46,878 nt of DNA from a virus (Duplodnaviria; Heunggongvirae; Uroviricota; Caudoviricetes). The stretch lies in IMG/VR virus record IMGVR_UViG_2529292735_000017; one strand, written 5' to 3'. The notes under the pieces are model-generated. The model was not told the DNA's origin and did not search any database. It was given only the letters and a program-made list of their open reading frames with translations. A program made the position numbers and the translations under genes. Below are positions 14,437 to 46,171 of the stretch, one piece after another (position 1 is the first letter of the stretch; every line of letters begins with the position of its first letter).

Positions 14437-14476
14437 ATTGCGGAATTAATTACGGACCGTTATTATTCTGCTCCCG

Positions 14477-15192: not shown

Positions 15193-15725
15193 ATACATAT
15201 CTGGATTATCACCTGTTACGGTAAAAAGTGATTGCTTACTGTTTTTGTGAATGGCATTGCAGCAGCCGGATAATGTCAGTGCTGGCTGACGGTGTGCTGG
15301 TGGCGGGTGTGGTGGTTGTTGCTTTCCCGTTGCTGAAAAAGAAAACGCCAGACTGTTAGCCGGGTATCAGTTAGCGGGAGAAATTTTTAAATACTTCACA
15401 ATTCAGGCGGTTGACTGTTCTCTGGTTTGCGGGGAGTTTGTTAAAAGAAACTGGCATGGTGAATCCCCCTGTGCGGAGGGGCAATCAGCGAGTAGGTATA
15501 TGGGATAATCGCGGATTCAGGTGCTGGTACTGAATTCACCGGGAGGCACCCGGCACCATGCACTTCAATAGATTCTCTCCACATTATGGATATTCTTTCA
15601 GAATATCCCACGCAGACTTTGTGTAAATGTTAACAAATGTGCGTTTTATTTGATCTGATTCGCTGTTTGAGCGTCCAAAACAACGGTATATATAATCCTT
15701 TACTATATGACATATGTGAGGAAAA

Positions 15726-16154: not shown

Positions 16155-16304
16155 TATTTATTGTTTTGTAATAAACGGTTTCGGCTTAGGTTTGTTCTGA
16201 CACAACTACGGCACTGAGCTAAATTTAGCGGATAGTCAGCTCTGAGCCAGTGGCGGACGTAACAACTACTATTGCTGAGATTTTAATGGATTGAGGAGCA
16301 AGAA

Positions 16305-16700
16305 GTGGGATTAAAGAAAATCGTTATGTTGACTTTTTGGGTCGGTTTTGTTGCGGGATGCACACCTTTACACCCTTCAGATTGCCACAAAACTACTGCT
16401 ACAGGTAGTTGCAGTTCAGGACGCTGGGATGATCAGGATGAATGGGGGGCGCAAGCGCGGGGAATCAGAGCTGCAATTAATGCCAAACTTGATGAGCCGC
16501 ATAACTGGAAAGGGAAAAAATGCAGGTTGCATATGGAATTCTCTCAGGATGGCACGGCGTTAAAAATATCTACCAGTAACGGTGATAAAGCCTATTGCGA
16601 AGCGATAAAGTCCGCAGCTCATAAAGCCAAATTTCCGGCCTTCAACAATCCGGAAGTCTACAGAGATTTTCAGAAATCTGGCTTTGACATGCGAGGTTAG
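16305..16700 (+). CDS. Paralogous lipoprotein with TolA C-terminal-like domain
   Basis: GTG start with GAGGAG RBS; lipobox VAGC; shares the C…C…PEVY…FQ…G(F/L)D(F/M) pattern with the upstream paralogue. Confidence 0.75.
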   Translation: MGLKKIVMLTFWVGFVAGCTPLHPSDCHKTTATGSCSSGRWDDQDEWGAQARGIRAAINAKLDEPHNWKGKKCRLHMEFSQDGTALKISTSNGDKAYCEAIKSAAHKAKFPAFNNPEVYRDFQKSGFDMRG

Positions 16701-17007
16701 CTCTTCAATTACTATATCTCATTCATAGCAAACTGACAGATTTGATGATGTTCTATATACGAAACCTGTGATGTCAAGTCTGAGCTAATACAAATAAACA
16801 TAATATCAGAGAAATACATTTTATTAGCTCGCTACGGCGAGCTTTTTATATTGCATCGTCTCCAGCATATATATCAATTAAGGCTCTGATTGATGTGTCT
16901 GGAAGCCTACACATAATAGACTGGCCCCCTGAATCTCCAGACAACCAATATCACTTAAATAAGTGATAGTCTTAATACTAGTTTTTAGACTAGTCATTGG
17001 AGAGCAG

Positions 17008-17337
17008 ATGATTGATGTCTTAGGACCGGAGAAACGCAGACGGCGTACTACACAGGAAAAGATCGCTATTGTTCAGCAGAGTTTTGAACCGGGAATGACG
17101 GTCTCCCTTGTTGCCCGGCAACACGGTGTGGCAGCCAGCCAGTTATTTCTCTGGCGCAAGCAATACCAGGAGGGAAGTCTTACTGCTGTGGCCGCAGGAG
17201 AGCAGGTCGTTCCTGCCTCTGAACTTGCTGCTGCCATGAAGCAGATTAAGAACTCCAGCGCCTGCTCGGCAAAAAAACGATGGAAAATGAACTCCTTAAA
17301 GAAGCCGTTGAATACGGGCGTGCAAAAAAGTGGATAG
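17008..17337 (+). CDS. insC: IS2 transposase OrfA (InsC), C-terminus apparently frame-altered
   Basis: [41 protein letters not shown]… matches InsC up to …AAMKQIK, then diverges from my recollection, consistent with a 1-nt deletion. Confidence 0.7.
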
Positions 17338-18235
17338 CGCACGCGCCCTTATTGCCCGGGGATGGGGAGTAAGCTTAGTCAGCCGTTGTCTCCGGGTGTC
17401 GCGTGCGCAGTTGCACGTAATTCTCAGACGAACCGATGACTGGAAAGATGGTCGCCGCAGCCGTCACTCAGATGATACGGATGTGCTTCTCCGTATACAC
17501 CATGTTATCGGAGAGCTGCCCACGTATGGTTATCGTCGGGTATGGGCGCTGCTTCGCAGACAGGCCGAACTTGATGGTATGCCTGCGATCAATGCCAAAC
17601 GTGTTTACCGGATCATGCGCCAGAATGCGCTGTTGCTTGAGCGAAAAACCGCTGTACCGCCATCGAAACGGGCACATACTGGCAAAGTGGCCGTGAAAGA
17701 AAGCAATCAACGATGGTGCTCTGACGGGTTCGAGTTCCGCTGTGATAACGGAGAAAAACTGCGAGTCACGTTCGCGCTGGACTGCTGTGACCGTGAGGCA
17801 CTGCACTGGGCAGTCACTACGGGCGGCTTCGACAGTGAAACAGTACAGGACGTAATGCTGGGAGCGGTGGAACGCCGCTTCGGCAACGAGCTTCCGGCGT
17901 CTCCAGTAGAGTGGCTGACGGATAATGGTTCATGCTACCGGGCTAATGAAACACGGCAGTTTGCCCGGATGTTGGGGCTTGAACCGAAGAACACGGCGGT
18001 GCGGAGTCCGGAGAGTAACGGCATAGCAGAGAGCTTCGTGAAAACGATAAAGCGTGACTACATCAGTATCATGCCTAAACCAGACGGGTTAACGGCAGCA
18101 AAGAACCTTGCAGAGGCGTTCGAGCATTATAACGAATGGCATCCGCATAGTGCACTGGGTTATCGCTCGCCACGGGAATATCTGCGGCAGCAGGCCAGTA
18201 ATGGGTTAAGTGATAACAGGTGTCTGGAAATATAG
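17330..18235 (+). CDS. insD: IS2 transposase OrfB (InsD; DDE catalytic domain)
   Basis: 301-aa [26 protein letters not shown]… typical IS3-family OrfB. Confidence 0.85.
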
Positions 18236-18286
18236 GGGCAAATCCACATAATAACTATGCCATCCGTTCCGTGCGGAGGTGAGGCT

Positions 18287-18502: not shown

Positions 18503-18570
18503 TCCAATGACTCAATACTATGAACTGGTTGTGAAAGGAGGTAAGCGTCAACGGAGCACCGTATTGACGC

Positions 18571-18930
18571 TTATTTATTGGTGAGTACTACGTTCCATGG
18601 CAGGAGTTCGTCAACACGGTTGGAGGGCCATTCCGGCAGTACGCTCAGAATATGGCGCAGATACGCTTCCGGATCGATACCGTTCAGTCGGCAGGTGCCG
18701 ATCAGCCCGTACAGCAGTGCTCCACGCTCGCCGCCGTGATCGCTACCGAAGAACACGTAATTTTTCTTTCCGAGACAGACTGCACGAAGCGCTCTTTCCG
18801 CTGTGTTATTGTCCACCTCCGCCAGACCGTCATCACTGTAATAACAGAGGGCGTCCCACTGATTCAGTACATAGCTGAACGCTTCGCCCAGTCTGGATTT
18901 TTTCGACAGCGTGCCATTCTTCTCCACCAT
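18571..18930 (-). pseudogene. IS66 TnpC C-terminal fragment
   Basis: …DNNTAERALRAVCLGKKNYVFFGSDHGGERGALLYGLIGTCRLNGIDPEAYLRHIL… conserved IS66 transposase C-terminus; N-terminal three quarters absent. Confidence 0.75.
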
Positions 18931-18947
18931 CCATTCATGCAGCGACG

Positions 18948-19193
18948 TCAGTAACGCTTTGCTTCGCTGCTGCCTGGCTGCAAGACGCTCTGACTCTGGT
19001 AATCTCCGTATTTCATTCTCGATGGCGTACAGTTCACTTCTCCCCGTCGGCCACGGAAGATAAACAGGTGACCGGAGAAGGGGTTATCATCCAGCACATG
19101 CTGTATCTGCTCCCCCAGACCGTTGAAGGATTTACGCATATCAGTAACGCCGGCAACGAGCCAGATACGGGTACCTGATGGGAGTGAAATCAT
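18948..19193 (-). pseudogene. IS66 orf2 (TnpB) truncated
   Basis: MISLPSGTRIWLVAGVTDMRKSFNGLGEQIQHVLDDNPFSGHLFIFRGRRG then unrelated sequence, marking the deletion junction. Confidence 0.7.
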
Positions 19194-19627
19194 CGTCCCC
19201 TCCCGGTCAGCTCACGGATCAACACCGTGAGCAGCTCTGGTGAAGGATTTTCCAGCATCATTTTACCGTAATGGAATTCCACATGGCAGGAAGCTGCACA
19301 AGCAACTGATAATGCCTCCGGAGCAGGAGCATCTGTAGCACAGCGCGGGGGGTCGATAAGTTCCACTGGAACCAGAGTCGGAGAGGCCGGAAAAGATTGT
19401 GATACTGTAGGGCCTACAATAGTTGGAGGCATTCTACGAGAAATACGTCCTTCTCTTTGCCAGAGGCGTAGCCATTTAAAAATCAGGTTGTTATCAACGC
19501 CATGTTCCCGGGCCAGTTGTGCAACATTGGCATTTGGTTTCGAAGCCAGTTCAACCATATGAAGTTTAAATTCATTAGAAAATATCCGGCGGGTTCCGGA
19601 GCGCCAGTCTGTAGGTTTATCCATCAA
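19190..19627 (-). CDS. IS66-family orf1 (TnpA accessory protein)
   Basis: 145-aa ORF with HTH-like N-terminus, first gene of the IS66 operon. Confidence 0.75.
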   Translation of the reverse strand: MMDKPTDWRSGTRRIFSNEFKLHMVELASKPNANVAQLAREHGVDNNLIFKWLRLWQREGRISRRMPPTIVGPTVSQSFPASPTLVPVELIDPPRCATDAPAPEALSVACAASCHVEFHYGKMMLENPSPELLTVLIRELTGRGR

Positions 19628-19991
19628 TAGAACTCCGTCTAATTTAGAAGGAGCTCTAATTTAGTCTGCAAGGAGCAGGTGTTACAGACGGCATTGGCTT
19701 TACGCTTACGAAAGGAGTCCGTAATTTTGAGAATAAAGTTACGGTAACTGTAGCCTTACAGGACAAAGAACGCTTTGACGGTGAAATTTTTGGCCTGGAT
19801 GTCGCCATGGACCGTGTTGAAGGAGCTGCGCTGGAGTTTTATGAGGCAGCAGCCAGAATGAGCGTCCGGCAAGTCTTCCTGGAAGTAGCAGAAAAATTGT
19901 CAGAAAAAGTTGAGTCTTATCTGCAGCATCAGTACTCCTTTAAGATTGAAAATCCTGCCAATAAGCACGAGCGTCCTCATCATAAATATCT

Positions 19992-21823: not shown

Positions 21824-21940
21824 CTTAGTGTCTAGTCGATGGATACTCACATATTACGGTAACATTATGAAAAAATAATAGTTTTTTTTAACTCTGAACC
21901 AGCAATGGTAGTGCCAGTGATGACCGGAGTTAACACCATC

Positions 21941-22096
21941 ATGCGTGAATATCCAAATGGCGAAACAACACACCTCACTGTAATGGCTGCAGGGTTTCCA
22001 TCTCTGACCGGAGATCATAAAGTCATTTATGTAGCAGCGGATCGACATGTAACTTCAGAAGAAATTCTGGAAGCAGCAATGAGACTCTTGAATTGA
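21941..22096 (+). CDS. ynfN: YnfN-like small protein
   Basis: 51 aa from internal Met (MREYPNGETTHLTVMAAGFPSLTGDHKVIYVAADRH…); position between csp and gns as in Qin; from memory. Confidence 0.5.
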   Translation: MREYPNGETTHLTVMAAGFPSLTGDHKVIYVAADRHVTSEEILEAAMRLLN

Positions 22097-26302: not shown

Positions 26303-27810
26303 TGGCAATTCTTGATGATGTGATTGGCGTTTTTTCACCAGGATGGAAAGCGGCAAGGCTGCGTTCCCGTGCGGTGATCCAGGCTTATGAGGCCGTAAAA
26401 ACGACGCGGACACACAAAGCCCGACGGGAGAACCGAACTGCCGACCAGTTAAGCCAGTACGGGGCCGTGTCGTTACGTGAGCAGGCTCGTTACCTTGATA
26501 ACAACCACGATCTGGTCATTGGTGTATTTGACAAGCTGGAAGAACGGGTGGTGGGGAAAAACGGGATTATTGTCGAGCCACATCCGGTATTACGCAATGG
26601 GGCCATTGCCCGTGATCTGGCAGCGGAGATACGTACCCGATGGAGTGAATGGTCTGTCAGTCCGGAGGTCACCGGGCAGTTTACCCGTCCGATGCTGGAA
26701 CGTCTGATGCTGCGTACCTGGCTGCGCGATGGTGAGGTGTTTGCCCAGATGGTTTCCGGGCGCATAAACAGCCTGACGCCTTCTGCCGGTGTTCATTTCT
26801 GGCTGGAGGCGCTCGAGCCGGACTTTATTCCCATGACCAGTGATGAGAGCAACAGGCTGAATCAGGGCGTGTTTGTTGATGACTGGGGGCGTCCCGAAAA
26901 ATATCTGGTGTATAAAAGCCGTCCCGTATCCGGGCGGCAGATGGAAACCAAAGAAGTGGATGCAGAGCGAATGCTGCATCTTAAATTTGTTCGCCGTCTG
27001 CACCAGATGCGCGGGACGTCTTTGTTGTCCGGTGTGCTGATCCGCCTCAGTGCTCTGAAAGAGTATGAAGATTCTGAGCTGACTGCAGCAAGGATCGCCG
27101 CTGCTCTGGGGATGTACATCCGGAAAGGCGACGGACAGAGCTATGAAACGGATGGTAATGACAGCAAGGAGAATGAACGCGAGCTTACCATTCAGCCAGG
27201 CATTATTTACGACGATCTGAAACCCGGCGAAGAAATCGGAATGGTGAAGTCGGATCGCCCCAATCCTAACCTTGAAACTTTTCGTAATGGTCAGTTGCGT
27301 GCCGTGGCTGCGGGCAGTCGTCTGAGTTTTTCCAGTACAGCGCGCAACTATAACGGCACTTACAGCGCCCAGCGTCAGGAGCTGGTTGAATCTACTGATG
27401 GCTACCTGATCCTGCAGGACTGGTTTATTGGTGCCGTCACCCGCCCGATGTACCGTGCCTGGCTGAAACAGGCTGTGGTATCCGGTGTTATCAGGCTACC
27501 CCGCGATCTGGACCGATCTTCACTGTATACCGCGGTGTATTCCGGACCGGTGATGCCGTGGATTGACCCTGTTAAGGAGGCTGAGGCCTGGAAAATTCAG
27601 ATTCGTGGTGGAGCGGCGACAGAATCAGACTGGGTACGTGCAGGTGGTCGTAATCCAGATGATGTCAAACGTCGGCGCAAGGCCGAAATTGATGAAAACC
27701 GCAAGCTGGATCTGGTATTTGATACCGATCCGGCCAGTGATAAAGGAGGCAGCAGTGCCGCAACGAAACGACAGGAGCCGCAGCACACCGACGACCAGTC
27801 CGAAGAATAA
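26302..27810 (+). CDS. Portal protein (gpB-like)
   Basis: About 500 aa from Met at 26302; position and size; acidic C-terminus. Confidence 0.85.
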   Translation: MAILDDVIGVFSPGWKAARLRSRAVIQAYEAVKTTRTHKARRENRTADQLSQYGAVSLREQARYLDNNHDLVIGVFDKLEERVVGKNGIIVEPHPVLRNGAIARDLAAEIRTRWSEWSVSPEVTGQFTRPMLERLMLRTWLRDGEVFAQMVSGRINSLTPSAGVHFWLEALEPDFIPMTSDESNRLNQGVFVDDWGRPEKYLVYKSRPVSGRQMETKEVDAERMLHLKFVRRLHQMRGTSLLSGVLIRLSALKEYEDSELTAARIAAALGMYIRKGDGQSYETDGNDSKENERELTIQPGIIYDDLKPGEEIGMVKSDRPNPNLETFRNGQLRAVAAGSRLSFSSTARNYNGTYSAQRQELVESTDGYLILQDWFIGAVTRPMYRAWLKQAVVSGVIRLPRDLDRSSLYTAVYSGPVMPWIDPVKEAEAWKIQIRGGAATESDWVRAGGRNPDDVKRRRKAEIDENRKLDLVFDTDPASDKGGSSAATKRQEPQHTDDQSEE

Positions 27811-27823
27811 TTCTTGGTTCAGG

Positions 27824-29781
27824 ATGCAGGCAGGTCACCAGAGTGACGCGGATATTTATATTTATGACGAGATTGGTTTCTGGGGTGTTACGGCGAAGCA
27901 GTTTATCAGTGATCTGAATGCACTGGGCGATATCACCCACATTAATCTCCATATTAATTCACCGGGTGGCGATGTCTTTGAAGGCATCGCCATTTTTAAT
28001 GCACTGAAAACACATGGTGCGTCCATTACCGTTTATGTCGACGGTGTGGCGGCGTCAATGGCGTCGGTCATTGCGATGGTGGGAAACCCGGTCATTATGC
28101 CGGAAAACTCCTTCATGATGATTCATAAACCATTTGGCTTTACGGGCGGTGATGCGGAGGACATGCGCACCTATGCCGACCTGCTCGATAAAGTTGAGGC
28201 GGTTCTGTTACCCGCTTATGCACAGAAAACCGGGAAACCACCGATGAAATTGCTGCCATGCTGGCGGATGAGACCTGGATGTCCGGTGCCGAATGTCTGG
28301 CACAGGGATTTGCTGATCAGGTGACACCAGCCGTTAAGGCAATGGCATGTATTCAGTCAAAACGTACAGAGGAATTTAAAAAGATGCCGGAATCCATTCG
28401 AAATATGATTACTCCGCCACGCAACAGTGCTCCACGCGTACAGGATGATGGACCTGCAGCCTCCCGGACGCCAGTGCAGGCAGCAGCACCCGTGGTGGAT
28501 GAAAACAGCATCCGTGCGCAGGTCCTGGCAGAGCAAAAAGCGCGTGTAAACGGTATTAATGATCTGTTTGCCATGTTTGGCGGGCGTTATCAGTCGTTGC
28601 AGGCTCAGTGTCTTGCCGATCCTGAATGTTCGCTGGAGCAGGCCCGCGAAAAGCTGTTGAACGAGATGGGGCGCGAGTCCACGCCATCCAATAAAAATAC
28701 CCCGGCTCATATTTATGCCGGTAACGGTAATTTTGTGGGGGACGGGATCCGCCAGGCGCTGATGGCGCGCGCCGGGTTTGAAAAAACTGAACGTGATAAT
28801 GTCTACAACGGGATGACCCTGCGTGAATATGCCCGTATGTCACTGACTGAACGTGGTATTGGTGTTTCCAGTTATAACCCGATGCAGATGGTCGGTGCGG
28901 CGTTCACACACAGTACGTCTGACTTCGGTAATATTCTGCTGGATGTTGCGAACAAAGCCATTCTGCAGGGCTGGGAAGATGCCCCTGAAACCTATGAACA
29001 GTGGACGCGGAAAGGTCAGTTGTCTGATTTTAAAATTGCCCATCGTGTGGGTATGGGGGGCTTCAGTGCTCTGCGTCAGGTGCGTGAAGGGGCAGAATAT
29101 AAATACGTCACCACCGGAGATAAACAGGCCACTATTGCACTGGCGACCTATGGCGAGCTGTTCAGTATCACCCGTCAGGCCATTATCAATGATGATCTGA
29201 ATATGCTGACCGATGTCCCGATGAAGCTGGGCCGTGCGGCGAAATCCACTATTGCCGATCTGGTTTATGCCATTCTGACGTCTAACCCGAAAATCTCCAC
29301 AGATAATGTAAGTCTGTTCGATAAAGCGAAACATGCAAACGTACTGGAGAGCGCGGCAATGGACGTGGCATCGCTGGATAAAGCCCGCCAGTTGATGCGC
29401 GTTCAGAAAGAGGGTGAGCGTCATCTGAATATTCGTCCTGCGTTCGTACTGGTACCGACGGCGATGGAGTCTGTTGCTAACCAGGTCATTCGCTCCTCAA
29501 GTGTCAAGGGGGCTGACATTAACGCCGGTATTATTAACCCGGTGAAAGATTTTGCGACCGTTATTGCAGAGCCTCGTCTTGATGATAACAGCCAGACCAC
29601 CTTCTACCTGGCTGCGTCCAAAGGCTCCGATACGATTGAAGTGGCTTATCTCAACGGTGTGGATACGCCATATATTGATCAGATGGAGGGCTTCAGTGTG
29701 GATGGCGTGACAACGAAAGTGCGTATTGACGCTGGTGTTGCGCCAGTTGATCACCGCGGCCTGGTGAAATGTACGGCGTAA
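27824..29781 (+). CDS. Prohead protease (ClpP/S49-like)-scaffold-major capsid fusion; requires a frame change near 28232-28240
   Basis: ORF 27824-28324 has a ClpP-like core (…INSPGGDVFEG…SMASVIAMVGNPVIMPENSFMMIHKP…); ORF in the -1 frame (to 29781) continues the protease C-terminus, then capsid-like sequence; junction at A-run GGGAAACC. Confidence 0.7.
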
Positions 29782-32258: not shown

Positions 32259-32648
32259 ATGATGTTTCTGAAACAGGACACGTTTAATTATGAAAAACAG
32301 TCCGTGGTGCTCAGTGAGCTGTCCGGGCTGCAGAGAATTGAATATCTGACGTTTGTTCAGCAGCGAACGGCAAAGTTTGATGCCGGGGAGGGAGAACTGC
32401 CGGAGGCTGAACGACAGATTGCTTTTCTGCGGATGGGGATGGATATCAATGCCTGGCTGGTTTCCCGCTCACTGTGGAATGCGGATCAGTCTAAGGATGT
32501 AGAGACGCTTTGCGCATCCGTTATTACAACATGGTCGTATGATGCCCTGGGTGCGGGGGCGGAGATGGTTCTGTCGCTGAGCGGTATGGGGGCCATTGAT
32601 AATGCCGTGGATGATGAGCATGAGGCGCTGACGCCGGAAAAGTCCTGA
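32259..32648 (+). CDS. G: Tail assembly chaperone G
   Basis: MMFLKQDTFNYEKQSVVLSELSGLQRIEYL… parallels the lambda gpG N-terminus; GGTGGAG RBS. Confidence 0.8.
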   Translation: MMFLKQDTFNYEKQSVVLSELSGLQRIEYLTFVQQRTAKFDAGEGELPEAERQIAFLRMGMDINAWLVSRSLWNADQSKDVETLCASVITTWSYDALGAGAEMVLSLSGMGAIDNAVDDEHEALTPEKS

Positions 32649-32986
32649 CGCGGGAAATGCAGTTTGTCATGCGGCTTGCCCGGGAGTTCCGGCGGGCAGA
32701 CTGGCGGCGGATGCTGTCGGAAATGTCGGCCACTGAGCTTGGTGAGTGGGGCGATTATTTCCGGATGCAGAGCTTCAGTGATGTGTGGATGGATGCGCAG
32801 TTTGCCTCGCTGAAGGCATTGATCGTGAGAATGGTGTCCGGCAGCAGTGATGCTGCGGTGGCTGATTTCAGCCTTTTACCGGAAGAGAACGGGATACCGG
32901 AGCGAACGGACGAAGAACTGATGCATCTTGGGGAAGGTATTTCCGGAGGTGTGCGTTATGGACCAGATAGCCAACCTGGTCATTGA
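32259..32986 (+). CDS. Tail assembly chaperone G-T fusion via programmed -1 frameshift
   Basis: -1 frame is open only from 32624 and runs to 32986 overlapping the G stop; candidate slip site CCGGAAAAG (32634-32642). Confidence 0.55.
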
Positions 32987-35900
32987 TTTGGGGATTGATG
33001 CGGCAGAGTTTAAAAATGAAATTCCCCGTATCAAAAACCTTCTGAATGGTGCAGCCAGCGATGCAGAACGGTCTTCTGCCCGTATGCAGCGTTTTATGGA
33101 GCGTCAGACTCAGGCCGCCCGGCAGACAACGCAGGCAGCTTCTTCGGCTGCAACAGCCGCATCCGTCCATGCGCAGACGGTGGAGAAGAACGCACAGGCT
33201 CATGAACGCATGGCCCGCGAGGTGGAGAAAACCCGCCAGCGCATGGAGGCACTGAGCCAGAAAATGCGCGAGGAACAGGCGCAGGCCATGGCTCTGGCGG
33301 AGGCTCAGGATAAAGCGGCTGCTGCGTTTTATCGTCAGATTGACAGTGTGAAACAGGCCAGTGCGGGGCTGCAGGAATTACAGCGTATTCAGCAGCAGAT
33401 CCGACAGGCCAGAAACAGTGGCGGGATTGGTCAGCAGGATTATCTGGCGCTGATTTCTGAGGTTACTGCGAAAACCCGTGTTCTTACACAGGCTGAGGAA
33501 GAGGCTACCCGACAGAAAGTGGCGTTTATCCGTCAGCTTAAAGAGCAGGCAACCCGCCTGAATCTTTCATCTTCTGAGTTGCTTCGTGCTAAGGCAGCCC
33601 AGCTGGGGGTAAGCAGTGCTGCAGAAGTGTATATCCGCAAAATGGAGCAGGCAGGAAAAGCCACGCATTCGCTGGGTCTGAAAAGTGCAGCAGCCCGCCA
33701 GGAGATAGGCGTTCTGATAGGTGAACTGGCCCGCGGCAATTTAGGGGCGCTGAGGGGATCCGGGATAACGCTGGCTAACCGTGCCGGATGGATAGACACA
33801 CTGATGTCACCGAAAGGCATGATGCTTGGCGGGGTTATTGGCGGTATTGCCGCGGCCGTCTATGGTCTGGGTAAAGCCTGGTATGACGGTCAGAAGGAGG
33901 GGGAAGAATTTAACCGCCAGTTGTCGCTGACGGGGCATTATGCCGGAGTCACTGCCGGGCAGCTGTGGACGCTCAGTCGTGCTATTTCCGGGAATGGTAT
34001 CACGCAACATGCTGCAGCCGGTGCGCTGGCTCAGGTGGTGGGGAGTGGTGCATTTCGTGGAAACGATATCGGTATGGTGGCGAGAGCTGCCGCACAGATG
34101 GAGCGATCGGTTGGCCAGTCGGTCAGCGATACCATAAATCAGTTTAAGCGGCTGAAGGATGATCCTGTAAATGCCGCGAAGGCTCTGGACAATGAGCTGC
34201 ATTTTCTTACTGCCACTCAGCTTGAGCAGATACGCGTCCTTGGGGAGCAGGGGCGGTCCAGTGATGCTGCACGGATAGCCATGTCTGCACTGGCAGAGGA
34301 AACCGGTCGGCGTACTGCGGATATTGATAATAACCTCAATGCGCTTGGCAGTACGCTGAAGTATCTGTCTGATTTGTGGAGTCGTTTCTGGGATGCGGCC
34401 ATGAATATTGGTCGTGAAGACTCGCTGGATGAACAGATTGCCGCTTTACAGGAGAAAGTGTCGCGGGCGAAAAGACTCCCCTGGACGGCATCATCTTCTC
34501 AGGTTGAATACGATCAGCAGCGTCTTAACGATCTTCAGGAGAAAAAACGCCAGAAGGATTTGCAGGATGCAAAAGAGCAGGCAGAGCGGAATTATCAGGA
34601 GCAACAGAAACGCCGTAATGCTGAAAATGCTGCACTGAACCGGATGAATGAAACGGAAGCAGCACGACATCAGCGTGAAATTGCGCGTATTAATGCCATG
34701 CAGTACGCCGATCAGGCTGTCAGGGATGCGGCGATACAACGTGAAAATGAACGTTACGAGAAAGCCCTGGCATCCGGTAAGAAAAAAACACGCGAAACCC
34801 GTAATGATGAGGCCACCCGGTTATTGCTGCAGTACAGTCAGCAACAGGCACAGGTGGAAGGACAGATTGCTGCTGCCAGACAGTCAGCAGGCATTGCCAC
34901 GGAAAGGATGACAGAAGCGCATAAACAGCTTCTGGCTCTGCAGCAGCGCATCAGCGACCTGGACGGGAAAAAACTGACGGCAGATGAAAAGAGTGTGCTG
35001 GCCCGTAAAGATGAACTGATTCAGGCACTGACGCTGCTGGATGTAAAACAGCAGGAGCTTCAGAAACAGACGGCACTCAACGAGCTGAAGAAAAAACAAT
35101 TCAGCTGACCAGTCAACTGGCTGAAGAAGAGCGCGCTCAGCGTCAGCAACATGACCTGGATATCGCCACGGTGGGTATGGGTGATCAGCAGCGACAGCGA
35201 TATCAGGTACAACTGAGTCTTCGCCAGAAATACCAGCAACAGCTGGAGCAGTTGAGGCGGGATAGTGAGCAGAAAGGGACATATAACACGGATGACTACA
35301 GAAAGGCCGAGCAGGCGCTGACGGAGAGCCTGAACCGACAACTGAATGAGAATCGCCGTTACTGGCAACAGCTTGAAGTTGTGCAGGGTAACTGGAAAAA
35401 CGGAGTCCTGCGTGCATTTCAGGATTTTACCGTGGATGCAGATAATACGGCAGAAACAGCAGAACAGGTGTTCTCGTCAGCCTTCAGCAACATGGGAAAT
35501 GGCCTGGCAACTTTTGTCACTACCGGCAAACTCAATTTCAAATCCTTCACCTCTTCTGTGCTGTCAGATATGGCGAAAATCCTGGCGCAGGCAACCATGA
35601 TGAAATCGATAAAAGGGATTGGCAGTGTACTGGGATTTGATCTCAGCAGCCTTTCCCTGAATGCCAATGGGGGGATTTATCAGTCTGCTGATTTGAGTCG
35701 TTACAGTGGCACGGTGGTTAACCGTCCGACGTTTTTTGCTTTTGCAAAAGGCGCGGGTGTGATGGGGGAAGCGGGACCTGAAGCCATTCTGCCATTGCGT
35801 CGTGGTGCTGACGGTAAGCTGGGGGTTGTGGCGGATATTGGGGGTTCAGGTATGGCGATGTTTTCCCCGCAGTACAACATCGAGATCAATAACGATGGCA

Positions 35901-36022
35901 CGAACGGGCAGATAGGTCCGGCTGCCCTGAAGGTGGTTTATGACCTTGGGAAAAAAGCGGCAGCGGACTTTATGCAACAGCAGGCCCGTGATGGTGGTCG
36001 GTTAAGTGGAGCATATCGGTAA
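32958..36022 (+). CDS. H: Tail tape measure protein H; reading frame interrupted in an A6 tract at 35091-35096
   Basis: Coiled-coil N-terminal two thirds to a stop at 35108; -1 frame continues with a gpH-like C-terminus (…GGIYQSADLS…RPTFFAFAKGAGVMGEAGPEAILPL…) to 36022. Confidence 0.75.
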
Positions 36023-36351
36023 TGGAGACGTTTCACTGGAAAGTGCGCCCGGATATGAATGTGGTATCAGAGCCGAAAGTGGTGACAGTGAAGCTGGGCG
36101 ATGGTTATGAACAGCGTCGTGCGGCGGGACTGAATAACCAGTTGTCGATTTACAGCGTGACGATACGTGTTCGTAAATGTGAACACCCATCTTTAAAAGC
36201 CTTTCTGGAACGGCACGGTGGCGTCCGCGCATTTCAGTGGACGCCACCTTATGACTGGAAGCCGATCAGGGTGGTTTGTCGTAAATGGTCGGCAAGCGTG
36301 GGGGCGTTGTGGGTAACCATAACGGCAGATTTTGAACAGGTCGTGGCATAG
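36022..36351 (+). CDS. M: Minor tail protein M
   Basis: 109 aa, same length and position as lambda gpM. Confidence 0.8.
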   Translation: METFHWKVRPDMNVVSEPKVVTVKLGDGYEQRRAAGLNNQLSIYSVTIRVRKCEHPSLKAFLERHGGVRAFQWTPPYDWKPIRVVCRKWSASVGALWVTITADFEQVVA

Positions 36352-36360
36352 GAGTCTCTG

Positions 36361-37059
36361 ATGCAGGATATTCCACAGGAAACACATCATGAGACGACAC
36401 GCCTCACTCAGTCAGCCCAGGTGGTGCTCTGGGAAATCGATCTGACAGTGGTCGGTGGAGAACGTTATTTTTTCTGTAATGAGCAGAACGATAAAGGTGA
36501 GCCGGTCACCTGGCAGAGGCGACAGTATCAGGCGTATCCCATTCAGGGGACGGGATTTGAACTGAACGGCAAAGGCAGTGCTGCCCGTCCGACACTGACG
36601 GTTTCTAACCTGCACGGCATGGTCACCGGGATGGCGGAAGACCTGCAGAGTCTGGTCGGAGGAACGGTGGTCCGGCGTAAGGTTTACGCCCGTTTTCTGG
36701 ATGCGGTGAACTTCGTCAACGGAAACAGTGACGCCGATCCGGAGCAGGAGGTGATCAGCCGCTGGCGCATCGAGCAGTGCAGCGAACTGAGCGCGGTGAG
36801 TGCCTCTTTTGTACTGTCCACGCCGACGGAAACGGACGGCGCTGTTTTTCCGGGGCGCATCATGCTGGCTAATACCTGCACCTGGACCTATCGCGGTGAT
36901 GAGTGCGGTTATCACGGTCCGGCGGTCGCGGATGAATATGACCAGCCGACCTCCGATATCACGAAGGATAAATGCAGCAAATGCCTGAGCGGCTGTAAGT
37001 TTCGCAATAACGTCGGCAACTTTGGCGGCTTCCTTTCCATTAACAAACTTTCGCAGTGA
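36361..37059 (+). CDS. L: Minor tail protein L
   Basis: 232 aa, same length as lambda gpL; C-terminal Cys cluster (CSKCLSGCKFRNN). Confidence 0.85.
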   Translation: MQDIPQETHHETTRLTQSAQVVLWEIDLTVVGGERYFFCNEQNDKGEPVTWQRRQYQAYPIQGTGFELNGKGSAARPTLTVSNLHGMVTGMAEDLQSLVGGTVVRRKVYARFLDAVNFVNGNSDADPEQEVISRWRIEQCSELSAVSASFVLSTPTETDGAVFPGRIMLANTCTWTYRGDECGYHGPAVADEYDQPTSDITKDKCSKCLSGCKFRNNVGNFGGFLSINKLSQ

Positions 37060-37808
37060 ATCCCATGACAGAGACAGAATCAGCGATTCTGGCGCACGCC
37101 CGGCGATGTGCGCCAGCGGAGTCGTGCGGCTTCGTGGTGAGAACACCGGAGGGGGAAAGATATTTTCCCTGCGTGAATATCTCCGGTGAGCCGGAGGAGT
37201 ATTTCCGGATGTCGCCGGAGGACTGGCTGCGGGCAGAGATGCAGGGTGAGATTGTGGCGCTGGTCCACAGTCACCCCGGTGGTCTGCCCTGGCTGAGTGA
37301 GACCGACCGGCGGCTGCAGGTGCAGAGTGATTTGCCGTGGTGGCTGGTTTGCCGGGGGGCGATTCACAAGTTCCGCTGTGTGCCACATCTTTCCGGGCGG
37401 CGCTTTGAGCACGGGGTGACGGACTGTTACACGCTGTTCCGGGATGCTTACCATCTGGCGGGGATTGAGATGCCGGATTTTCATCGCGAGGATGACTGGT
37501 GGCGTAACGGTCAGAATCTCTATCTGGATAATCTGGAGGCTACAGGGCTGTATCAGGTGCCGTTGTCAGCGGCGCAGCCGGGCGATGTGCTGCTGTGCTG
37601 TTTTGGTTCATCGGTGCCGAATCATGCCGCCATTTACTGTGGTGACGGCGAGCTGCTGCACCATATTCCTGAACAACTGAGCAAACGAGAGAGGTACACC
37701 GACAAATGGCAGCGACGCACACACTCCCTCTGGCGTCACCGGGCATGGCACGCATCTGCCTTTACGGGGATTTACAACGATTTGGCCGCCGCATCGACCT
37801 TCGAGTGA
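37056..37808 (+). CDS. K: Tail tip assembly protein K (MPN/JAB + NlpC/P60-like)
   Basis: MPN-like …EIVALVHSHPGG… motif and C-terminal Cys/His peptidase-like region; position. Confidence 0.8.
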   Translation: MNPMTETESAILAHARRCAPAESCGFVVRTPEGERYFPCVNISGEPEEYFRMSPEDWLRAEMQGEIVALVHSHPGGLPWLSETDRRLQVQSDLPWWLVCRGAIHKFRCVPHLSGRRFEHGVTDCYTLFRDAYHLAGIEMPDFHREDDWWRNGQNLYLDNLEATGLYQVPLSAAQPGDVLLCCFGSSVPNHAAIYCGDGELLHHIPEQLSKRERYTDKWQRRTHSLWRHRAWHASAFTGIYNDLAAASTFE

Positions 37809-38353
37809 AAACGGGGTCCGAAGCCATCCGGGCGCTGGCCATGCAGATCCCGGCGTTTCGTCAGAAACTGAGCGACGGCTGGTACCAGGTACGCATTGCC
37901 GGGCGTGATGCAGGTGAAACCGAATTGTCTGCCCGTCTTAATGAGCCGCTGGCAAATGGTGCCGTGATCCACATCGTGCCGCGTCTGGCGGGAGCTAAAA
38001 GTGGCGGTGTGTTTCAGGTGGTGCTGGGGGCGGCGCTGATTGCGGTGGCATGGTGGAACCCTGTGGGCTGGCTGGGTGCCGCGGCTGTATCGGGCATGTA
38101 TGCGGCAGGGGCCAGTATGATCCTGGGCGGAGTGGCGCAGATGCTGGCACCGAAAGCCAGGACGCCCACGGCAGCAAGTACAGATAACGGCAAACAGAAC
38201 ACCTATTTCTCCTCACTGGATAACATGGTTGCCCAGGGCAATGTTCTGCCCGTTCTGTACGGTGAAATGCGCGTGGGGTCGCGGGTGGTCTCTCAGGAGA
38301 TCAGCACGGCAGACGAAGGGGATGGTGGTCAGGTTGTGGTGATTGGTCGCTGA
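37706..38353 (+). CDS. I: Tail tip assembly protein I
   Basis: MAATHTLPLASPGMARICLYGDLQRFGRRIDLRVKTG… and C-terminal …NGKQNTYFSSLDNMVAQGNVLPVLYGEMRVGSRVVSQEISTADEGDGGQVVVIGR parallel lambda gpI. Confidence 0.8.
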   Translation: MAATHTLPLASPGMARICLYGDLQRFGRRIDLRVKTGSEAIRALAMQIPAFRQKLSDGWYQVRIAGRDAGETELSARLNEPLANGAVIHIVPRLAGAKSGGVFQVVLGAALIAVAWWNPVGWLGAAAVSGMYAAGASMILGGVAQMLAPKARTPTAASTDNGKQNTYFSSLDNMVAQGNVLPVLYGEMRVGSRVVSQEISTADEGDGGQVVVIGR

Positions 38354-38413
38354 TGAAAAACGTTTTATGTGAAACCGCCTCCGGGCGGTTTTGTCGTTTA
38401 TGGAGCGTGAGGA

Positions 38414-41400
38414 ATGGGTAAAGGCAGCAGTAAGGGGCATACTCCGCGCGAAGCGAAGGACAACCTGAAGTCCACGCAGTTGCTGAGTGTGATCGATGCC
38501 ATCAGCGAAGGGCCGGTTGAAGGTCCGGTGGATGGATTAAAAAGCGTGCTGCTGAACAGTACGCCAGTGCTGGACACTGAGGGGAATACCAACATCTCCG
38601 GCGTCACGGTGGTGTTCCGGGCCGGTGAGCAGGAGCAGACACCGCCGGAGGGATTTGAATCCTCCGGCTCCGAGGCGGTGCTGGGTACGGAAGTGAAATA
38701 CGACACGCCGATCACCCGGACCATCACGTCGGCAAACATTGACCGACTGCGTTTTACCTTCGGCGTGCAGGCACTGGTGGAAACCACCTCAAAGGGGGAC
38801 AGGAATCCGTCGGAAGTCCGCCTGCTGGTTCAGATACAACGTAACGGTGGCTGGGTGACGGAAAAAGACATCACCATTAAAGGCAAAACCACCTCACAGT
38901 ATCTGGCCTCGGTGGTGGTGGGTAACCTGCCGCCGCGCCCGTTCAATATCCGGATGCGCAGGATGACGCCGGACAGCACCACAGACCAGCTGCAGAACAA
39001 AACGCTCTGGTCGTCATACACCGAAATCATCGATGTGAAACAGTGCTACCCGAACACGGCACTGGTCGGCGTACAGGTGGATTCGGAGCAGTTCGGCAGC
39101 CAGCAGGTGAGCCGTAATTATCATCTTCGCGGGCGCATTCTGCAGGTGCCGTCGAACTATAACCCGCAGACGCGACAATACAGCGGTATCTGGGACGGAA
39201 CGTTACAACCGGCATACAGCAACAACATGGCCTGGTGTCTGTGGGATATGCTGACCCATCCGCGCTACGGCATGGGGAAACGTCTTGGTGCGGCGGATGT
39301 GGATAAATGGGCGCTGTATGTCATCGGCCAGAATTGCGACCAGTCGGTGCCGGATGGCTTTGGTGGCACGGAACCGCGTATCACCTGTAATGCGTACCTG
39401 ACCACGCAGCGCAAGGCGTGGGATGTGCTCAGTGATTTCTGCTCGGCGATGCGCTGTATGCCGGTATGGAACGGGCAGACGCTGACGTTCGTGCAGGACC
39501 GGCCATCGGATAAGGTGTGGACCTATAACCGCAGTAATGTGGTGATGCCGGATGATGGCGCGCCGTTCCGCTACAGCTTCAGCGCCCTGAAGGACCGTCA
39601 TAATGCCGTTGAGGTGAACTGGATTGACCCGAATAACGGCTGGGAGACGGCGACAGAGCTTGTGGAGGATACGCAGGCCATTGTCCGTTATGGTCGTAAC
39701 GTCACGAAGATGGATGCCTTTGGCTGTACCAGCCGGGGGCAGGCACACCGCGCCGGGCTGTGGCTGATTAAAACGGAGCTGCTGGAGACGCAGACCGTGG
39801 ACTTCAGCGTGGGCGCAGAAGGGCTTCGCCATGTACCGGGCGATGTCATTGAAATCTGTGATGATGACTATGCGGGGATCAGCACCGGCGGGCGTGTGCT
39901 GGCGGTGAACAGCCAGACCCGGACGCTGACGCTCGACCGTGAAATCACGCTGCCATCCTCCGGTACCACGCTGATAAGCCTGGTTGACGGAAGTGGCAAT
40001 CCGGTCAGCGTGGAGGTTCAGTCCGTCACCGACGGCGTGAAGGTGAAAGTGAGCCGTGTTCCTGACGGCGTTGCCGGATACAGCGTGTGGGGGCTGAAGC
40101 TGCCGACGCTGCGCCAGCGCCTGTTCCGCTGTGTGAGTATCCGTGAGAACGACGACGGCACGTATGCCATCACTGCCGTGCAGCATGTGCCGGAAAAAGA
40201 GGCCATCGTGGATAACGGAGCGCACTTTGACGGCGACCAGAGCGGCACGGTGAATGGTGTCACGCCGCCAGCGGTGCAGCACCTGACCGCAGAAGTCACC
40301 GCAGACAGTGGGGAGTATCAGGTGCTGGCGCGCTGGGACACGCCGAAGGTAGTGAAGGGTGTGAGCTTTATGCTTCGCCTGACCGTGGCCGCCGATGACG
40401 GCAGTGAGCGGCTGGTCAGCACGGCCCGGACGACGGAAACCACTTACCGCTTCAGGCAGCTGGCGCTGGGGCGTTACACGCTGACGGTCCGGGCGGTAAA
40501 TGCCCGGGGACAGCAGGGCGATCCGGCGTCGGTATCGTTCCGGATTGCCGCCCCGGCAGCGCCGTCGCGGATTGAGCTGACGCCGGGCTATTTTCAGATA
40601 ACTGCCACGCCGCATCTTGCGGTTTATGATCCGACGGTACAGTTTGAGTTCTGGTTCTCGGAAACGCGGATTACCGATATCAGGCAGGTTGAAACCACAG
40701 CCCGCTACCTTGGCACGGGGCTGTACTGGATAGCCGCCAGTATCAATATCAAACCGGGCCATGATTATTACTTTTATATCCGCAGTGTGAACACCGTTGG
40801 CAAATCGGCATTCGTGGAGGCCGTCGGTCGGGCGAGCGATGATGCGGAAGGTTACCTGGATTTTTTCAAAGGCAAGATAACCGAATCCCATCTCGGTAAA
40901 GAGCTGCTGGAAAAAGTTGATCTGACGGAGGATAACGCCAGCAGACTGGATGAGTTTTCGAAAGAGTGGAAGGACGCTAACGATAAATGGAATGCCATGT
41001 GGGGCGTCAAAATTGAGCAGACCAAAGACGGCAAACATTATGTCGCGGGTATTGGCCTCAGCATGGAGGACACGGAGGAAGGCAAGCTGAGCCAGTTTCT
41101 GGTTGCCGCTAACCGTATCGCGTTTATTGACCCGGCAAACGGGAATGAAACGCCGATGTTTGTGGCGCAGGGCAACCAGATATTCATGAACGACGTGTTC
41201 CTGAAGCGCCTGACAGCCCCCACCATTACCAGCGGTGGCAGTCCTCCGGTATTTTCCCTGACATCAGACGGAAAGCTGACCGCTAAAAATGCGGATATCA
41301 GTGGTAGTGTGAATGCGAACTCAGGAACGCTCAACAATGTCACGATTAACCAGAACTGTACGATTAAGGGCATGCTGGAGGCGACCCAGGTCAGAGGGGA

Positions 41401-41827
41401 TTTCGTTAAAGCTGTATCAAAAGCCTTCCCGAAAAAAGTCGGTACGTGGGGTAACACGGAAACACCAAACGGTACGGTTACAGTCACCATCAGCGATGAT
41501 CATAACTTTGACCGCCAGATTATTATTCCGCCCATTATTTTTAACGGTATAGCGTATGACGATCCGGGGAGCGGAAATAACCCAGGAGGCACGCGATACA
41601 CGGGTTATGGTTTTGAAGTTCGCAAAAACGGCGTATTAATCGCATCCAGAGAAACTAAAGGGGCCATTCCCGGTAGTTACAGTGCAGTTATTGATATGCC
41701 TAGTGGTGGTGGTAGCGTCACTCTGGAGTTTAAGATTTTCCAGAAAGGCAATCAGGGGGCAGGCAATATCACCGACTGTACGGTGATTGTGACCAAAAAA
41801 GCCGCTTCCGGCATCAGTATTCGTTGA
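38414..41827 (+). CDS. J: Central tail fibre / host specificity protein J
   Basis: 1137 aa, size and position as lambda gpJ. Confidence 0.9.
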
Positions 41828-41848
41828 AATTGTTATAACCCATATAAG

Positions 41849-41872
41849 GGCACCAGAAATGGTGCCTTTTTT
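41849..41872 (+). terminator. Intrinsic terminator after J
   Basis: GGCACC-agaaat-GGTGCC stem-loop followed by TTTTTT. Confidence 0.5.
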
Positions 41873-41896
41873 ATTGCAGAAAAGCGAGAGGTAATT

Positions 41897-42496
41897 ATGC
41901 GTAAACTTTATGCCGCCATTTTTTCCGCAGCCATTTGTCTGGCCGTATCCGGTGCGCCTGCATGGGCATCTGAACATCAGTCCACGCTGAGCGCGGGGTA
42001 TCTTCATGCCTCGACGAACGTTCCCGGCAGCGATGATCTTAACGGGATTAACGTGAAATACCGTTATGAGTTTACGGACACACTGGGGATGGTGACGTCG
42101 TTCAGCTATGCAGGAGACAAGAATCGCCAGCTGACCCGTTACAGCGATACCCGCTGGTATGAAGATTCCGTGCGTAACCGCTGGTTCAGCGTGATGGCGG
42201 GGCCGTCTGTACGCGTGAATGAATGGTTCAGCGCGTATGCGATGGCGGGTGTGGCTTACAGCCGTGTGTCGACTTTCTCCGGGGATTATCTCCGCGTAAC
42301 TGACAATAAGGGGAAAACGCACGATGTGCTAACCGGAAGTGATGACGGTCGCCACAGCAACACGTCTCTGGCTTGGGGGGCTGGCGTGCAGTTTAACCCG
42401 ACCGAGTCCGTGGCCATTGATGTCGCTTATGAAGGTTCCGGCAGTGGCGACTGGCGCACTGACGGTTTCATCGTGGGTGTCGGTTATAAATTCTGA
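41897..42496 (+). CDS. lom: Outer-membrane beta-barrel protein Lom (Ail/Lom family)
   Basis: Signal peptide then alternating beta-strand pattern; C-terminal …GFIVGVGYKF; position after J as in lambda. Confidence 0.85.
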   Translation: MRKLYAAIFSAAICLAVSGAPAWASEHQSTLSAGYLHASTNVPGSDDLNGINVKYRYEFTDTLGMVTSFSYAGDKNRQLTRYSDTRWYEDSVRNRWFSVMAGPSVRVNEWFSAYAMAGVAYSRVSTFSGDYLRVTDNKGKTHDVLTGSDDGRHSNTSLAWGAGVQFNPTESVAIDVAYEGSGSGDWRTDGFIVGVGYKF

Positions 42497-42522
42497 TTAG
42501 CCAGGTAACACAGTGTTATGAC

Positions 42523-42549
42523 AGCCCGCCGGTTCAGGCGGGCTTTTTT
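42523..42549 (+). terminator. Intrinsic terminator after lom
   Basis: AGCCCGCC-ggttca-GGCGGGCT stem-loop followed by TTTTTT. Confidence 0.55.
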
Positions 42550-42554
42550 GTGGG

Positions 42555-45500
42555 GTGAATATGGCAGTAAAGATTTCAGGTGTACTGAAAGACGGCACAG
42601 GAAAACCGGTACAGAACTGCACAATCCAGCTGAAAGCAAAACGTAACAGTACCACTGTGGTGGTGAACACGCTGGCCTCAGAAAATCCGGATGAAGCCGG
42701 GCGTTACAGTATGGACGTTGAGTACGGTCAGTACAGCGTTATTCTGTTGGTGGAGGGATTCCCGCCGTCACATGCCGGGACCATCACCGTGTATGAAGAT
42801 TCTCAACCCGGTACGCTGAATGATTTTCTCGGTGCCATGACGGAGGATGATGCCCGTCCGGAGGCACTGCGACGTTTTGAACTGATGGTGGAAGAGGTGG
42901 CGCGTAACGCGTCCGCGGTGGCACAGAACACGGCAGCCGCGAAGAAGTCAGCCAGCGATGCCAGCACATCAGCCCGTGAGGCGGCAACCCATGCGACTGA
43001 TGCTGCAGGCTCAGCACGCGCAGCCAGCACGTCAGCCGGACAGGCCGCGTCGTCGGCTCAGTCAGCGTCTTCCAGCGCAGGAACGGCATCAGCAAAGGCC
43101 ACTGAAGCATCAAAAAGTGCTGCCGCTGCAGAGTCCTCAAAAAGCGCGGCGGCTACCAGTGCCGGTGCGGCGAAAACGTCAGAAACGAATGCGGCAGCGT
43201 CACAACAATCAGCAGCCACTTCTGCATCCACCGCGACCACGAAAGCGTCAGAAGCAGCCACCTCAGCCCGGGATGCGGCGGCCTCAAAAGAGGCAGCGAA
43301 ATCATCAGAAACGAACGCATCCTTGAGCGCCAGTAGCGCAGCTTCCTCGGCAACGGCGGCAGGAAATTCCGCGAAGGCGGCAAAAACGTCCGAGACGAAC
43401 GCCAGGTCTTCTGAGACGGCAGCGGGACAGAGCGCCTCAGCTGCGGCAGGCTCAAAAACAGCGGCTGCGTCATCTGCCAGTGCCGCGTCAACAAGTGCCG
43501 GGCAGGCCTCAGCCAGTGCCACCGCCGCCGGAAAATCGGCAGAAAGCGCCGCATCATCCGCTTCAACAGCCACAACGAAGGCTGGCGAAGCCACTGAGCA
43601 GGCCACGGCAGCAGCGAGGTCAGCTTCCGCAGCGAAGACATCCGAAACGAACGCGAAAGCGTCGGAAACCCGTGCAGAATCCTCAAAAACGGCCGCGGCA
43701 TCGTCCGCCAGTTCGGCGGCGTCATCGGCATCATCGGCGTCTGCTTCAAAAGATGAGGCGACCAGACAGGCGTCAGCAGCGAAGGGCAGCGCCACGACGG
43801 CATCCACGAAGGCGACAGAGGCTGCTGGTAGTGCGAAGGCAGCAGCTCAGAGCAAAAGTACGGCGGAATCTGCAGCAACGCGCGCTGAGACAGCGGCAAA
43901 ACGGGCAGAGGATATTGCATCCGCCGTGGCGCTTGAGGATGCGAGCACGACGAAAAAGGGGATAGTACAGCTCAGTAGTGCGACTAACAGCACTTCCGAG
44001 TCACTGGCGGCAACACCAAAAGCCGTTAAGGCCGCGTATGACCTGGCTAGCGGGAAATACACCGCACAGGATGCAACGACAGCACAGAAAGGGATAATCC
44101 AGCTAAGCAGCGCGACCAACAGCACGTCTGAAACGCTGGCCGCGACACCAAAGGCAGTAAAAGCAGCCAATGACAATGCTGAGAAACGTCTGCAGAAAGA
44201 TCAGAACGGTGCGGATATCCCTGGCAAAGACACCTTTACGAAAAATATTGGTGCCTGCCGTGCCTTCGGTGGGTCAGTAAGCACAACAACAGGAAACTGG
44301 ACGACTGCACAGTTTATCGAGTGGCTGGATTCTCAGGGAGCATTTAACCATCCCTACTGGATGTGCAAGGGTTCCTGGTCTTATGGCAATAATAAAATCA
44401 TTACTGATACTGACTGCGGTAATATTCATCTCGCCGGAGCTGTCATTGAAGTAATGGGGATAAAATCAGCGATGACGATCCGCATTACCACACCGACCAC
44501 CTCCACTGGTGGTGGAACAACTAACGCCCAGTTTACCTATATTAATCACGGAACAGATTATTCACCTGGCTGGCGAAGGGACTATAACTCCAGAAATAAG
44601 CCAACGGCATCAGAGATCGGGGCGTTACCGTCAGGTGGAACAGCAGTATCATCAGTTAATCTGTCTTCAAAAGGTCGGGTAACCGCGCTGACAGACAATA
44701 CGCAGGGGGCAACAGGTCTTGAGTTATACGAGGTGTATAACAACGGATATCCAACAGCGTATGGAAATATCATTCACCTGAAAGGGATGACAGCCGTTGG
44801 CGAAGGTGAGTTACTCATCGGCTGGAGTGGTACAAGCGGTGCTCATGCTCCGGCATTTATTCGTTCACGACGGGATACGACCGACGCAAACTGGTCGCCG
44901 TGGGCGCAGCTTTACACCTCGGCTCATCCTCCTGCAGAGTTTTATCCAGTCGGTGCACCAATCCCGTGGCCATCAGATACCGTTCCGTCTGGCTATGCCC
45001 TGATGCAGGGGCAGACTTTTGACAAATCTGCATACCCGAAACTTGCAGCCGCTTATCCGTCAGGCGTGATCCCTGATATGCGTGGCTGGACGATTAAGGG
45101 CAAACCTGCCAGTGGTCGGGCCGTATTGTCTCAGGAACAGGACGGCATTAAATCGCACACCCACAGCGCCAGCGCATCCAGTACGGATTTGGGGACGAAA
45201 ACCACATCGTCGTTTGATTACGGCACTAAATCCACGAATAACATCGGGGCGCATACGCACAGTGTGAGCGGTACAGCCGCAAGTGCCGGAAACCATACTC
45301 ATAGTGTCACAGGCGCATCAGCAGTCAGCCAGTGGTCACAAAATGGGTCAGTACATAAGGTAGTGTCTGCGGCCAGTGTGAATACAAGTGCTGCAGGAGC
45401 GCACACTCATAGTGTCAGCGGCACAGCTGCATCTGCAGGTGCTCACGCACATACTGTCGGTATTGGTGCTCATACGCACTCGGTTGCGATTGGCTCACAT

Positions 45501-45587
45501 GGACACACCATCACCGTTAACGCTGCTGGTAACGCGGAAAACACCGTCAAAAACATCGCATTTAACTATATTGTGAGGCTTGCATAA
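42555..45587 (+). CDS. stf: Side tail fibre protein (Stf-like) with Ala/Ser-rich repeats and C-terminal His-rich HxH repeats
   Basis: 1010 aa; long low-complexity repeat region (…AAKTSETNA… units), and C-terminal HTHS/HAHT/HGHT repeats typical of receptor-binding tips. Confidence 0.85.
42930..43910 (+). repeat. Ala/Ser/Thr-rich imperfect tandem repeat region within stf
   Basis: Recurring motifs [24 protein letters not shown](S/G)EAT in the translation; generates long antisense shadow ORFs. Confidence 0.6.
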
Positions 45588-46171
45588 TGGCATTCAGAAT
45601 GAGTGAACAACCACGGACCATAAAAATTTATAATCTGCTGTCCGGAACTAATGAATTTATTGGTGAAGGTGATGCATATATTCCGCCTCATACAGGTCTG
45701 CCAGCAAACAGTACCGATATTGCACCGCCAGATATTCCGGCTGGTTTCGTGGCTGTTTTCAACAGTGATGAGTCATCGTGGCATCTCGTTGAAGATCATC
45801 GGGGTAAAACGGTTTATGACGTGGCTTCCGGCGACGCGTTATTTATTTCTGAACTCGGCTCATTACCGGAAAATGTCACCTGGTTATCCCCGGAAGGGGA
45901 GTTTCAGAAGTGGAACGGCACAGCCTGGGTGAAGGATACGGAAGCAGAAAAACTGTTCCGGATCCGGGAGGCGGAAGAAACAAAAAACAGCCTGATGCAG
46001 GTAGCCAGTGAGCATATAGCGCCGCTTCAGGATGCTGTAGATCTGGAAATCGCAACGGAGGAAGAAACCTCATTGCTGGAAGCCTGGAAAAAATATCGGG
46101 TGTTGCTGAACCGTGTTGATACATCAACTGCACCTGATATTGAGTGGCCTACGAACCCTGTCAGGGAGTAA
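45587..46171 (+). CDS. tfa: Tail fibre assembly protein (Tfa)
   Basis: 194 aa; ATGA overlap with stf stop; typical position. Confidence 0.85.

Follow-up and report, generated by a model that had tools for sequence, protein, structure and literature searches.

The tape-measure gene of the prophage analyzed here is split by the lack of a single A in a homopolymeric tract, and this A6 tract is probably a sequencing or assembly artifact, i.e., a homopolymer under-call in a draft genome from 2012. The window, by which we mean the whole stretch of DNA that was analyzed, comprises the last 46,878 nt of contig AIHM01000042.1 (85,921 nt). Under the favored interpretation, the tape-measure gene would be intact in the bacterium and the true tract would be A7. 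One A would have been dropped from the run during sequencing or assembly, most likely in 454 pyrosequencing followed by Celera assembly, and the same under-call would have occurred four times in the window, each time leaving one A missing from an A run.

Direct reading of positions 35088–35108 gives AAG AAA AAA CAA TTC AGC TGA, with six A residues at 35091–35096 and the stop codon at 35106–35108. The tape-measure reading frame extends from ATG 32958, the counterpart of the annotated start in E. coli 20Ec-P-124 (NZ_AP017610.1), to TGA 35108, and its product ends ...NELKKKQFS. The -1 frame is already open ahead of the tract and continues to 36022 without a stop; it includes ...EEKTIQLTSQLAEEE... 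and ...KTIQLTSQLAEEE.... Both the termination at 35108 and the continuation of the -1 frame to 36022, which had been noted in a preliminary description of this DNA, were borne out by direct reading and translation. The A6 run was likewise correctly described there as one A short, as the closest relatives have the same bases at this tract save A7 for A6. Insertion of one A creates a reading frame of 3066 nt (32958–36022 plus 1 nt) that encodes 1021 amino acids, in agreement with the earlier estimate of about 1020. The restored protein matches WP_000372023.1, the intact tape measure of 20Ec-P-124, at every residue (100% identity), and strains KE48 and FCI1 have this same protein. The open -1 frame is not a matter of chance, as its 305 codons downstream of the tract are free of stops and match a known protein exactly. 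As recorded, the gene is not a single uninterrupted reading frame, being split at 35091–35108, and the 926 nt located 3' of the frameshift encode protein identical to the intact one and exhibit no decay. This distal part contains a conserved C-terminal segment, INNDGTNGQIGPAALKVVYD, and the source record annotates an ORF of 281 amino acids within it.

By homology and by its position in the tail module, the gene is identified as a predicted lambda gpH-type tail tape measure gene. Pfam searches with the restored protein revealed TMP_2 at residues 228–426 (PF06791, E = 2.7e-49), TMP_4 at residues 616–693 (PF24622, E = 1.1e-16), and Tape_meas_lam_C at residues 811–885 (PF09718, E = 4.7e-22), and lambda gpH (PDB 8iyk chain H) aligns with residues 296–1019 (E = 1.6e-48). 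These domains and this match confirm the gpH-like identity originally proposed. The gene follows directly upon the G/T tail assembly chaperone pair, which overlaps its start, and precedes M, L, K, I, and J; the placement of G/T upstream confirms that this is a lambda-type tail module. The end of G reads CCG GAA AAG TCC TGA, and T (ATG 32657) occupies the -1 frame with respect to G without an intervening stop (32634–32660), an arrangement consistent with the conserved G/GT -1 frameshift, with the motif GGAAAAG in place of the GGGAAAG of lambda. T is called as a separate gene in the source and RefSeq annotations. The features discussed here are listed in Table 1.

Table 1. Coordinates of the tape-measure gene, neighboring tail genes, other interrupted genes, and insertion sequences in the window.
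Feature	Position	Strand	Details
IS2	16917..18246	+	5-bp target duplication CATAA; 33 nt upstream of holin gene essD
IS66-family element, internally deleted	18541..19709	.	Inserted in ydfR; 8-bp target duplication GAAAGGAG
ynfN	21867..22096	+	Ended after 3 codons by private A7 to A6 change at 21870-21875
ClpP-like prohead protease/major capsid fusion gene	27755..29781	+	Split by private A4 to A3 change at 28235-28237
Tail assembly chaperones G and T	32262..32986	+	G 32262-32648, T 32657-32986; PF06894, PF06223
N-terminal tape-measure fragment	32958..35108	+	716 aa (713 native residues plus QFS, then stop); TMP_2 and TMP_4
A6 tract	35091..35096	+	Site of 1-nt shortfall; A7 in nearly all related tape-measure genes
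C-terminal tape-measure coding sequence	35097..36022	+	-1 frame; 308 residues of the intact protein; Tape_meas_lam_C

The window is a lambdoid prophage related to mEp460. Seventeen phage records match the DNA around the tract at 97.8–99.8% identity, the best being mEp460_ev081. Several observations point to insertion in the Qin region: an identical integrase adjoins rspB at the left junction in 10 other genomes, ydfJ is truncated at the right end of the prophage in 20Ec-P-124, the closest relative, and the gene set is Qin-like (essD, ydfR, rrrQ, rzpQ, cspI, ynfN, gnsB, and pinQ). The tail-fiber and tail-fiber assembly region (42373–45260 and 45419–46149) differs by 2.5–3.4% from relatives to which the rest is 99.97% identical, suggesting that it was replaced by recombination; in the source annotation, this region is represented only by a product of 553 amino acids and an antisense ORF of 249 amino acids.

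The provenance of the contig is compatible with homopolymer errors. Accessions AIHA–AIHS are drafts of the E. coli DECA collection, dating from 2012 (PMC3558956), and contemporaneous E. coli drafts from the same laboratory and sequencing center were produced with 454 Titanium 3-kb paired ends and Celera 6.0 (PMC3491183). Judging from these other drafts, 454 and Celera were most likely also used for the AIHM01 assembly. The contig passes through a 1.3-kb IS2 element without Ns, a passage that we infer to be easier with mate-pair 454 reads and Celera than with a short-read assembly. The artifact is favored in part because a multiplexed draft of 2012 from a laboratory then using 454 fits this provenance. 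Lineage-specific proteins led to no sister assembly of the same lineage: no other assembly carries the A98V form of the cement protein, the exact tail fiber of 1008 amino acids is not on record anywhere, and Lom is too common to mark sister assemblies.

The allele at the tract is exceptionally rare. A 66-nt query centered on the tract was compared with complete E. coli genomes, and among 1944 places in 1802 genomes the tract was A7 in 1942 and A6 in only two. The 17 phage records over this stretch (97.8–99.8% identical) all have 602 bases aligned with the 601 of the query, and A7 was verified base by base in one of them, mEp460_ev081. The exact truncated product of 716 amino acids is on record on one contig only, AIHM01000042.1 itself (GCA_000250455.2). 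One of the two A6 carriers, strain 204446 (NZ_CP025910.1), has 11 indels, chiefly within homopolymer runs, over the 6.4 kb around the tract, which indicates a noisy, unpolished long-read assembly. In this RefSeq "complete" genome, the T, tape-measure, and C40 peptidase genes of the tail module (1–6422 of the compared locus) are all annotated as frameshifted. Error-prone sequencing clearly does yield A6 at this tract, and this demonstrable susceptibility to error is a further reason for favoring the artifact. A differently broken copy was encountered in another draft genome, KE701594.1 (GCA_000460215.1), where the same tape-measure gene, at 1077–4142, is called as products of 540 and 459 amino acids and J is shortened; this copy has no indel relative to 20Ec-P-124, so that its split presumably arose from a nonsense substitution.

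If the A6 tract were real and in use, it could be a slippery site (G AAA AAA C), at which a low level of -1 ribosomal or transcriptional slippage would regenerate the exact wild-type protein, or a reversible A6/A7 switch that toggles tail production off and on. The tail module could then be retained by the host in a form that is almost silent yet recoverable. If tRNA-Lys slipped by -1 on AAA AAA, the reading would be K-K-K-T-I-Q, as in the intact protein; the frame beyond the tract is undamaged; and the adjacent genes G and T, the latter in the -1 frame, apparently already rely on a -1 shift. Nevertheless, such a function for the tract is highly improbable. The tract is an in-frame A7 in nearly all of the copies surveyed, no lineage maintains A6, and the out-of-frame layout expected of a programmed -1 frameshift is therefore not conserved in homologs; programmed frameshifting and phase variation were rejected on this basis. 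Furthermore, the register of the heptamer differs from the canonical X XXY YYZ, no stimulatory structure stands out, transcriptional slippage on A6 runs is very slight, and the record contains the same type of lesion in three more genes that are unrelated to this one.

The remaining lesions became apparent when changes private to the window were scored over positions 1–42370 against the three closest relatives (20Ec-P-124, KE48, and FCI1) and genomes identical over 1–8600. The private changes consist of four -1 deletions and three substitutions, and all four deletions remove a single A on the + strand, from A runs of 3, 4, 7, and 7. Their distribution is uneven. At least a dozen genomes match positions 1–8600 with 100% identity, 8600–16916 contains two private substitutions and zero private indels, and the 22.7 kb from 19710 to 42370 contains three private single-A deletions (21870, 28235, and 35091) along with one private substitution, C to T at 30160, which causes A98V in the DUF2190 cement protein. 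At 13653, a private G to T change is present in the Q antiterminator gene at the boundary of a G3 and a T5 run (GGGTTTTT to GGTTTTTT); the change may be a further flow-type miscall and not a genuine SNP. A C7 run at 16093 was considered as a possible over-call and rejected, as C7 is the majority state (728 of 789 records). The genome of 20Ec-P-124 (NZ_AP017610.1, ~7606) has C6 at this point in contrast to C7 in the window and those 728 genomes, and its annotation of a "frameshifted" tolA-like pseudogene results from this C6.

The two companion indels reported in the preliminary description, in the head gene (A4 to A3 at 28235) and in IS2 (TTAAAG to TTAAG at ~17248–17250), are both present in the record. 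The A3 allele of the head gene was found at none of 2006 places in complete genomes. The IS2 copy is identical to many others save for the private A3 to A2 change, which frameshifts orfA, and no perfect match to it exists among 24,255 IS2 places. This indel was considered as the natural programmed frameshift between orfA and orfB, an explanation that was rejected since the A6G site at 17324 is intact and the deletion at ~17248 is separate from it. A fourth indel, absent from the earlier list, affects the second and third codons of ynfN, which in the window reads ATG AAA AAA TAA; the three closest relatives have A7 here. At this gene, the alignment is one base longer in 534 of 536 genomes than in the window, and the A6 allele of the window is matched at 99% identity or more by the other 2 of the 536 (counting the best place per record), one of which, at 100%, is among the matches listed.

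The nature of these changes favors the under-call. The homopolymer indels are private to the window relative to independent assemblies of nearly identical sequence, and they outnumber the substitutions by four to three in 42 kb. Indels constitute ~10% of spontaneous changes in mutation-accumulation data for wild-type E. coli. Mismatch-repair-defective lines of E. coli yielded 5,324 indels and 30,061 substitutions, a share of 15% (PMC8510543). The probability of finding at least four indels among seven changes is 0.0027 if the indel share is 10% and 0.012 if it is 15%, and the artifact is favored because such a share is improbable for natural mutation. It is also favored because the changes are private, rich in indels, and all deletions, because they lie in one-base runs of genes that are otherwise perfectly conserved, and because the three allele surveys of the tape-measure tract, the head gene, and IS2 recovered so few copies like those of the window (two, zero, and zero, respectively). 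The absence of decay 3' of the frameshift argues in the same direction, as does the location of one indel in an IS2 element that is otherwise identical to active copies and has kept its target duplication.

A real and very recent frameshift, in which replication slippage in A7 removed one A from a gene of a decaying prophage, is the less probable explanation, although it deserves serious consideration. According to this proposal, translation would stop after residue 713 (plus QFS), with loss of the Tape_meas_lam_C domain and the conserved C-terminal segment. The corresponding segment of lambda gpH sits in the tail-tip complex. A protein broken in this way would not be a functional tape measure, no tails would be made, and, with the prohead protease/capsid gene also split, particles would no longer be formed. 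The prophage has already taken real damage, as two genuine IS elements flanked by target duplications, IS2 and the IS66-family element in ydfR, are inserted in its lysis module. The latter, an element of 1169 nt with ends GTAAGCG...CGCTTAC that is similar to ISEc47/ISEc23, interrupts a DUF1327 gene and is absent from the closest relatives. The IS2 element falls within what is presumed to be the late transcript. Natural slippage is frequent in A7 tracts, as the indel rate depends on run length (PMC8510543). In addition, the second A6 carrier, 24A16CRGN010, has no other uncompensated homopolymer indel nearby, and broken tape-measure genes occur in other prophages, such as the differently split gene in KE701594.1.

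Other observations conflict with a real deletion. Four indels accompanied by three substitutions are far from the natural spectrum, and all four events are private to one draft from 2012. Runs of 3 and 4 are poor natural slippage targets, and neutral decay extending to runs this short would be expected to leave tens of substitutions, whereas the 22.7-kb late region contains one. The intact coding sequence beyond the frameshift is likewise not what decay would produce. The IS insertions themselves need not inactivate the late genes of a Q-antiterminated operon, because Q-modified RNA polymerase of lambda reads through terminators.

The artifact interpretation nevertheless has weaknesses of its own. 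In 454 sequencing, consensus errors are more typical of runs of 6 or more than of A3 and A4 runs, and the interpretation is weakened because two of the four affected runs are only A3 and A4. The relatives agree with the window at all five of its runs of 8 and at most of its runs of 7, which also counts against it, as does the clustering of the four events in 18 kb, with none in the other 24 kb compared (1–16916 and 35097–42370). The pattern of deletions only, of A only, and on the + strand only is not obviously predicted by either the technology or the biology, and with n = 4 it is not significant. Finally, the two genuine IS insertions weaken the interpretation by making relaxed selection and real decay plausible. 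The choice between systematic assembly error and a decaying prophage that was posed in the preliminary description was sound; the weight of evidence has shifted toward assembly error, which is the more probable of the two.

Neither a sequencing artifact nor a real broken prophage gene is novel. A real deletion would add one more defective lambdoid prophage to a well-known situation. As an artifact, the lesions would amount to approximately one spurious frameshift per 10–12 kb in the compared region of the draft, and pseudogene calls, predictions of prophage intactness, and inferences of "decay" drawn from this assembly would be unreliable without checks at the read level. A miscall at this A7 tract is also found in at least one RefSeq "complete" genome.

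Comparison with related elements places the split gene in context. Phages of the mEp460 group are 99.2–99.8% identical to the window over 34800–35400, and mEp460-type genes have A7 and a single reading frame of 3066 nt, while the window has A6. The lambda gene order V-G-T-H-M-L-K-I-J is also that of the window module, and the restored protein shares with lambda gpH the same Pfam domains and a nearly identical C-terminus of ~35 residues. It is 168 residues longer than lambda gpH (853 amino acids), and the central coiled region is weakly conserved; unlike lambda gpH, the gene as recorded is split after residue 713. Qin is one of the cryptic lambdoid prophages of E. coli, which decay through IS insertions and frameshifts. 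The prophage resembles Qin in its chromosomal neighborhood, its Qin-like genes, and the presence of inserted IS elements. Qin of K-12 is without a structural module, whereas the prophage in the window keeps a complete one that is 99.9+% identical to those of intact relatives. With respect to its lesions, the window resembles known cases of homopolymer under-calling in flow-based or early long-read assemblies, which are also single-base deletions in runs, private to one assembly, that split conserved genes. Strain 204446 provides a case at this very gene. Under-called homopolymers gave rise to spurious frameshift annotations in another genome, where they were confirmed as artifacts by Sanger sequencing (PMC4687164), and this precedent also speaks for the artifact. 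The assignment proposed for the window rests on mutation spectrum and provenance.
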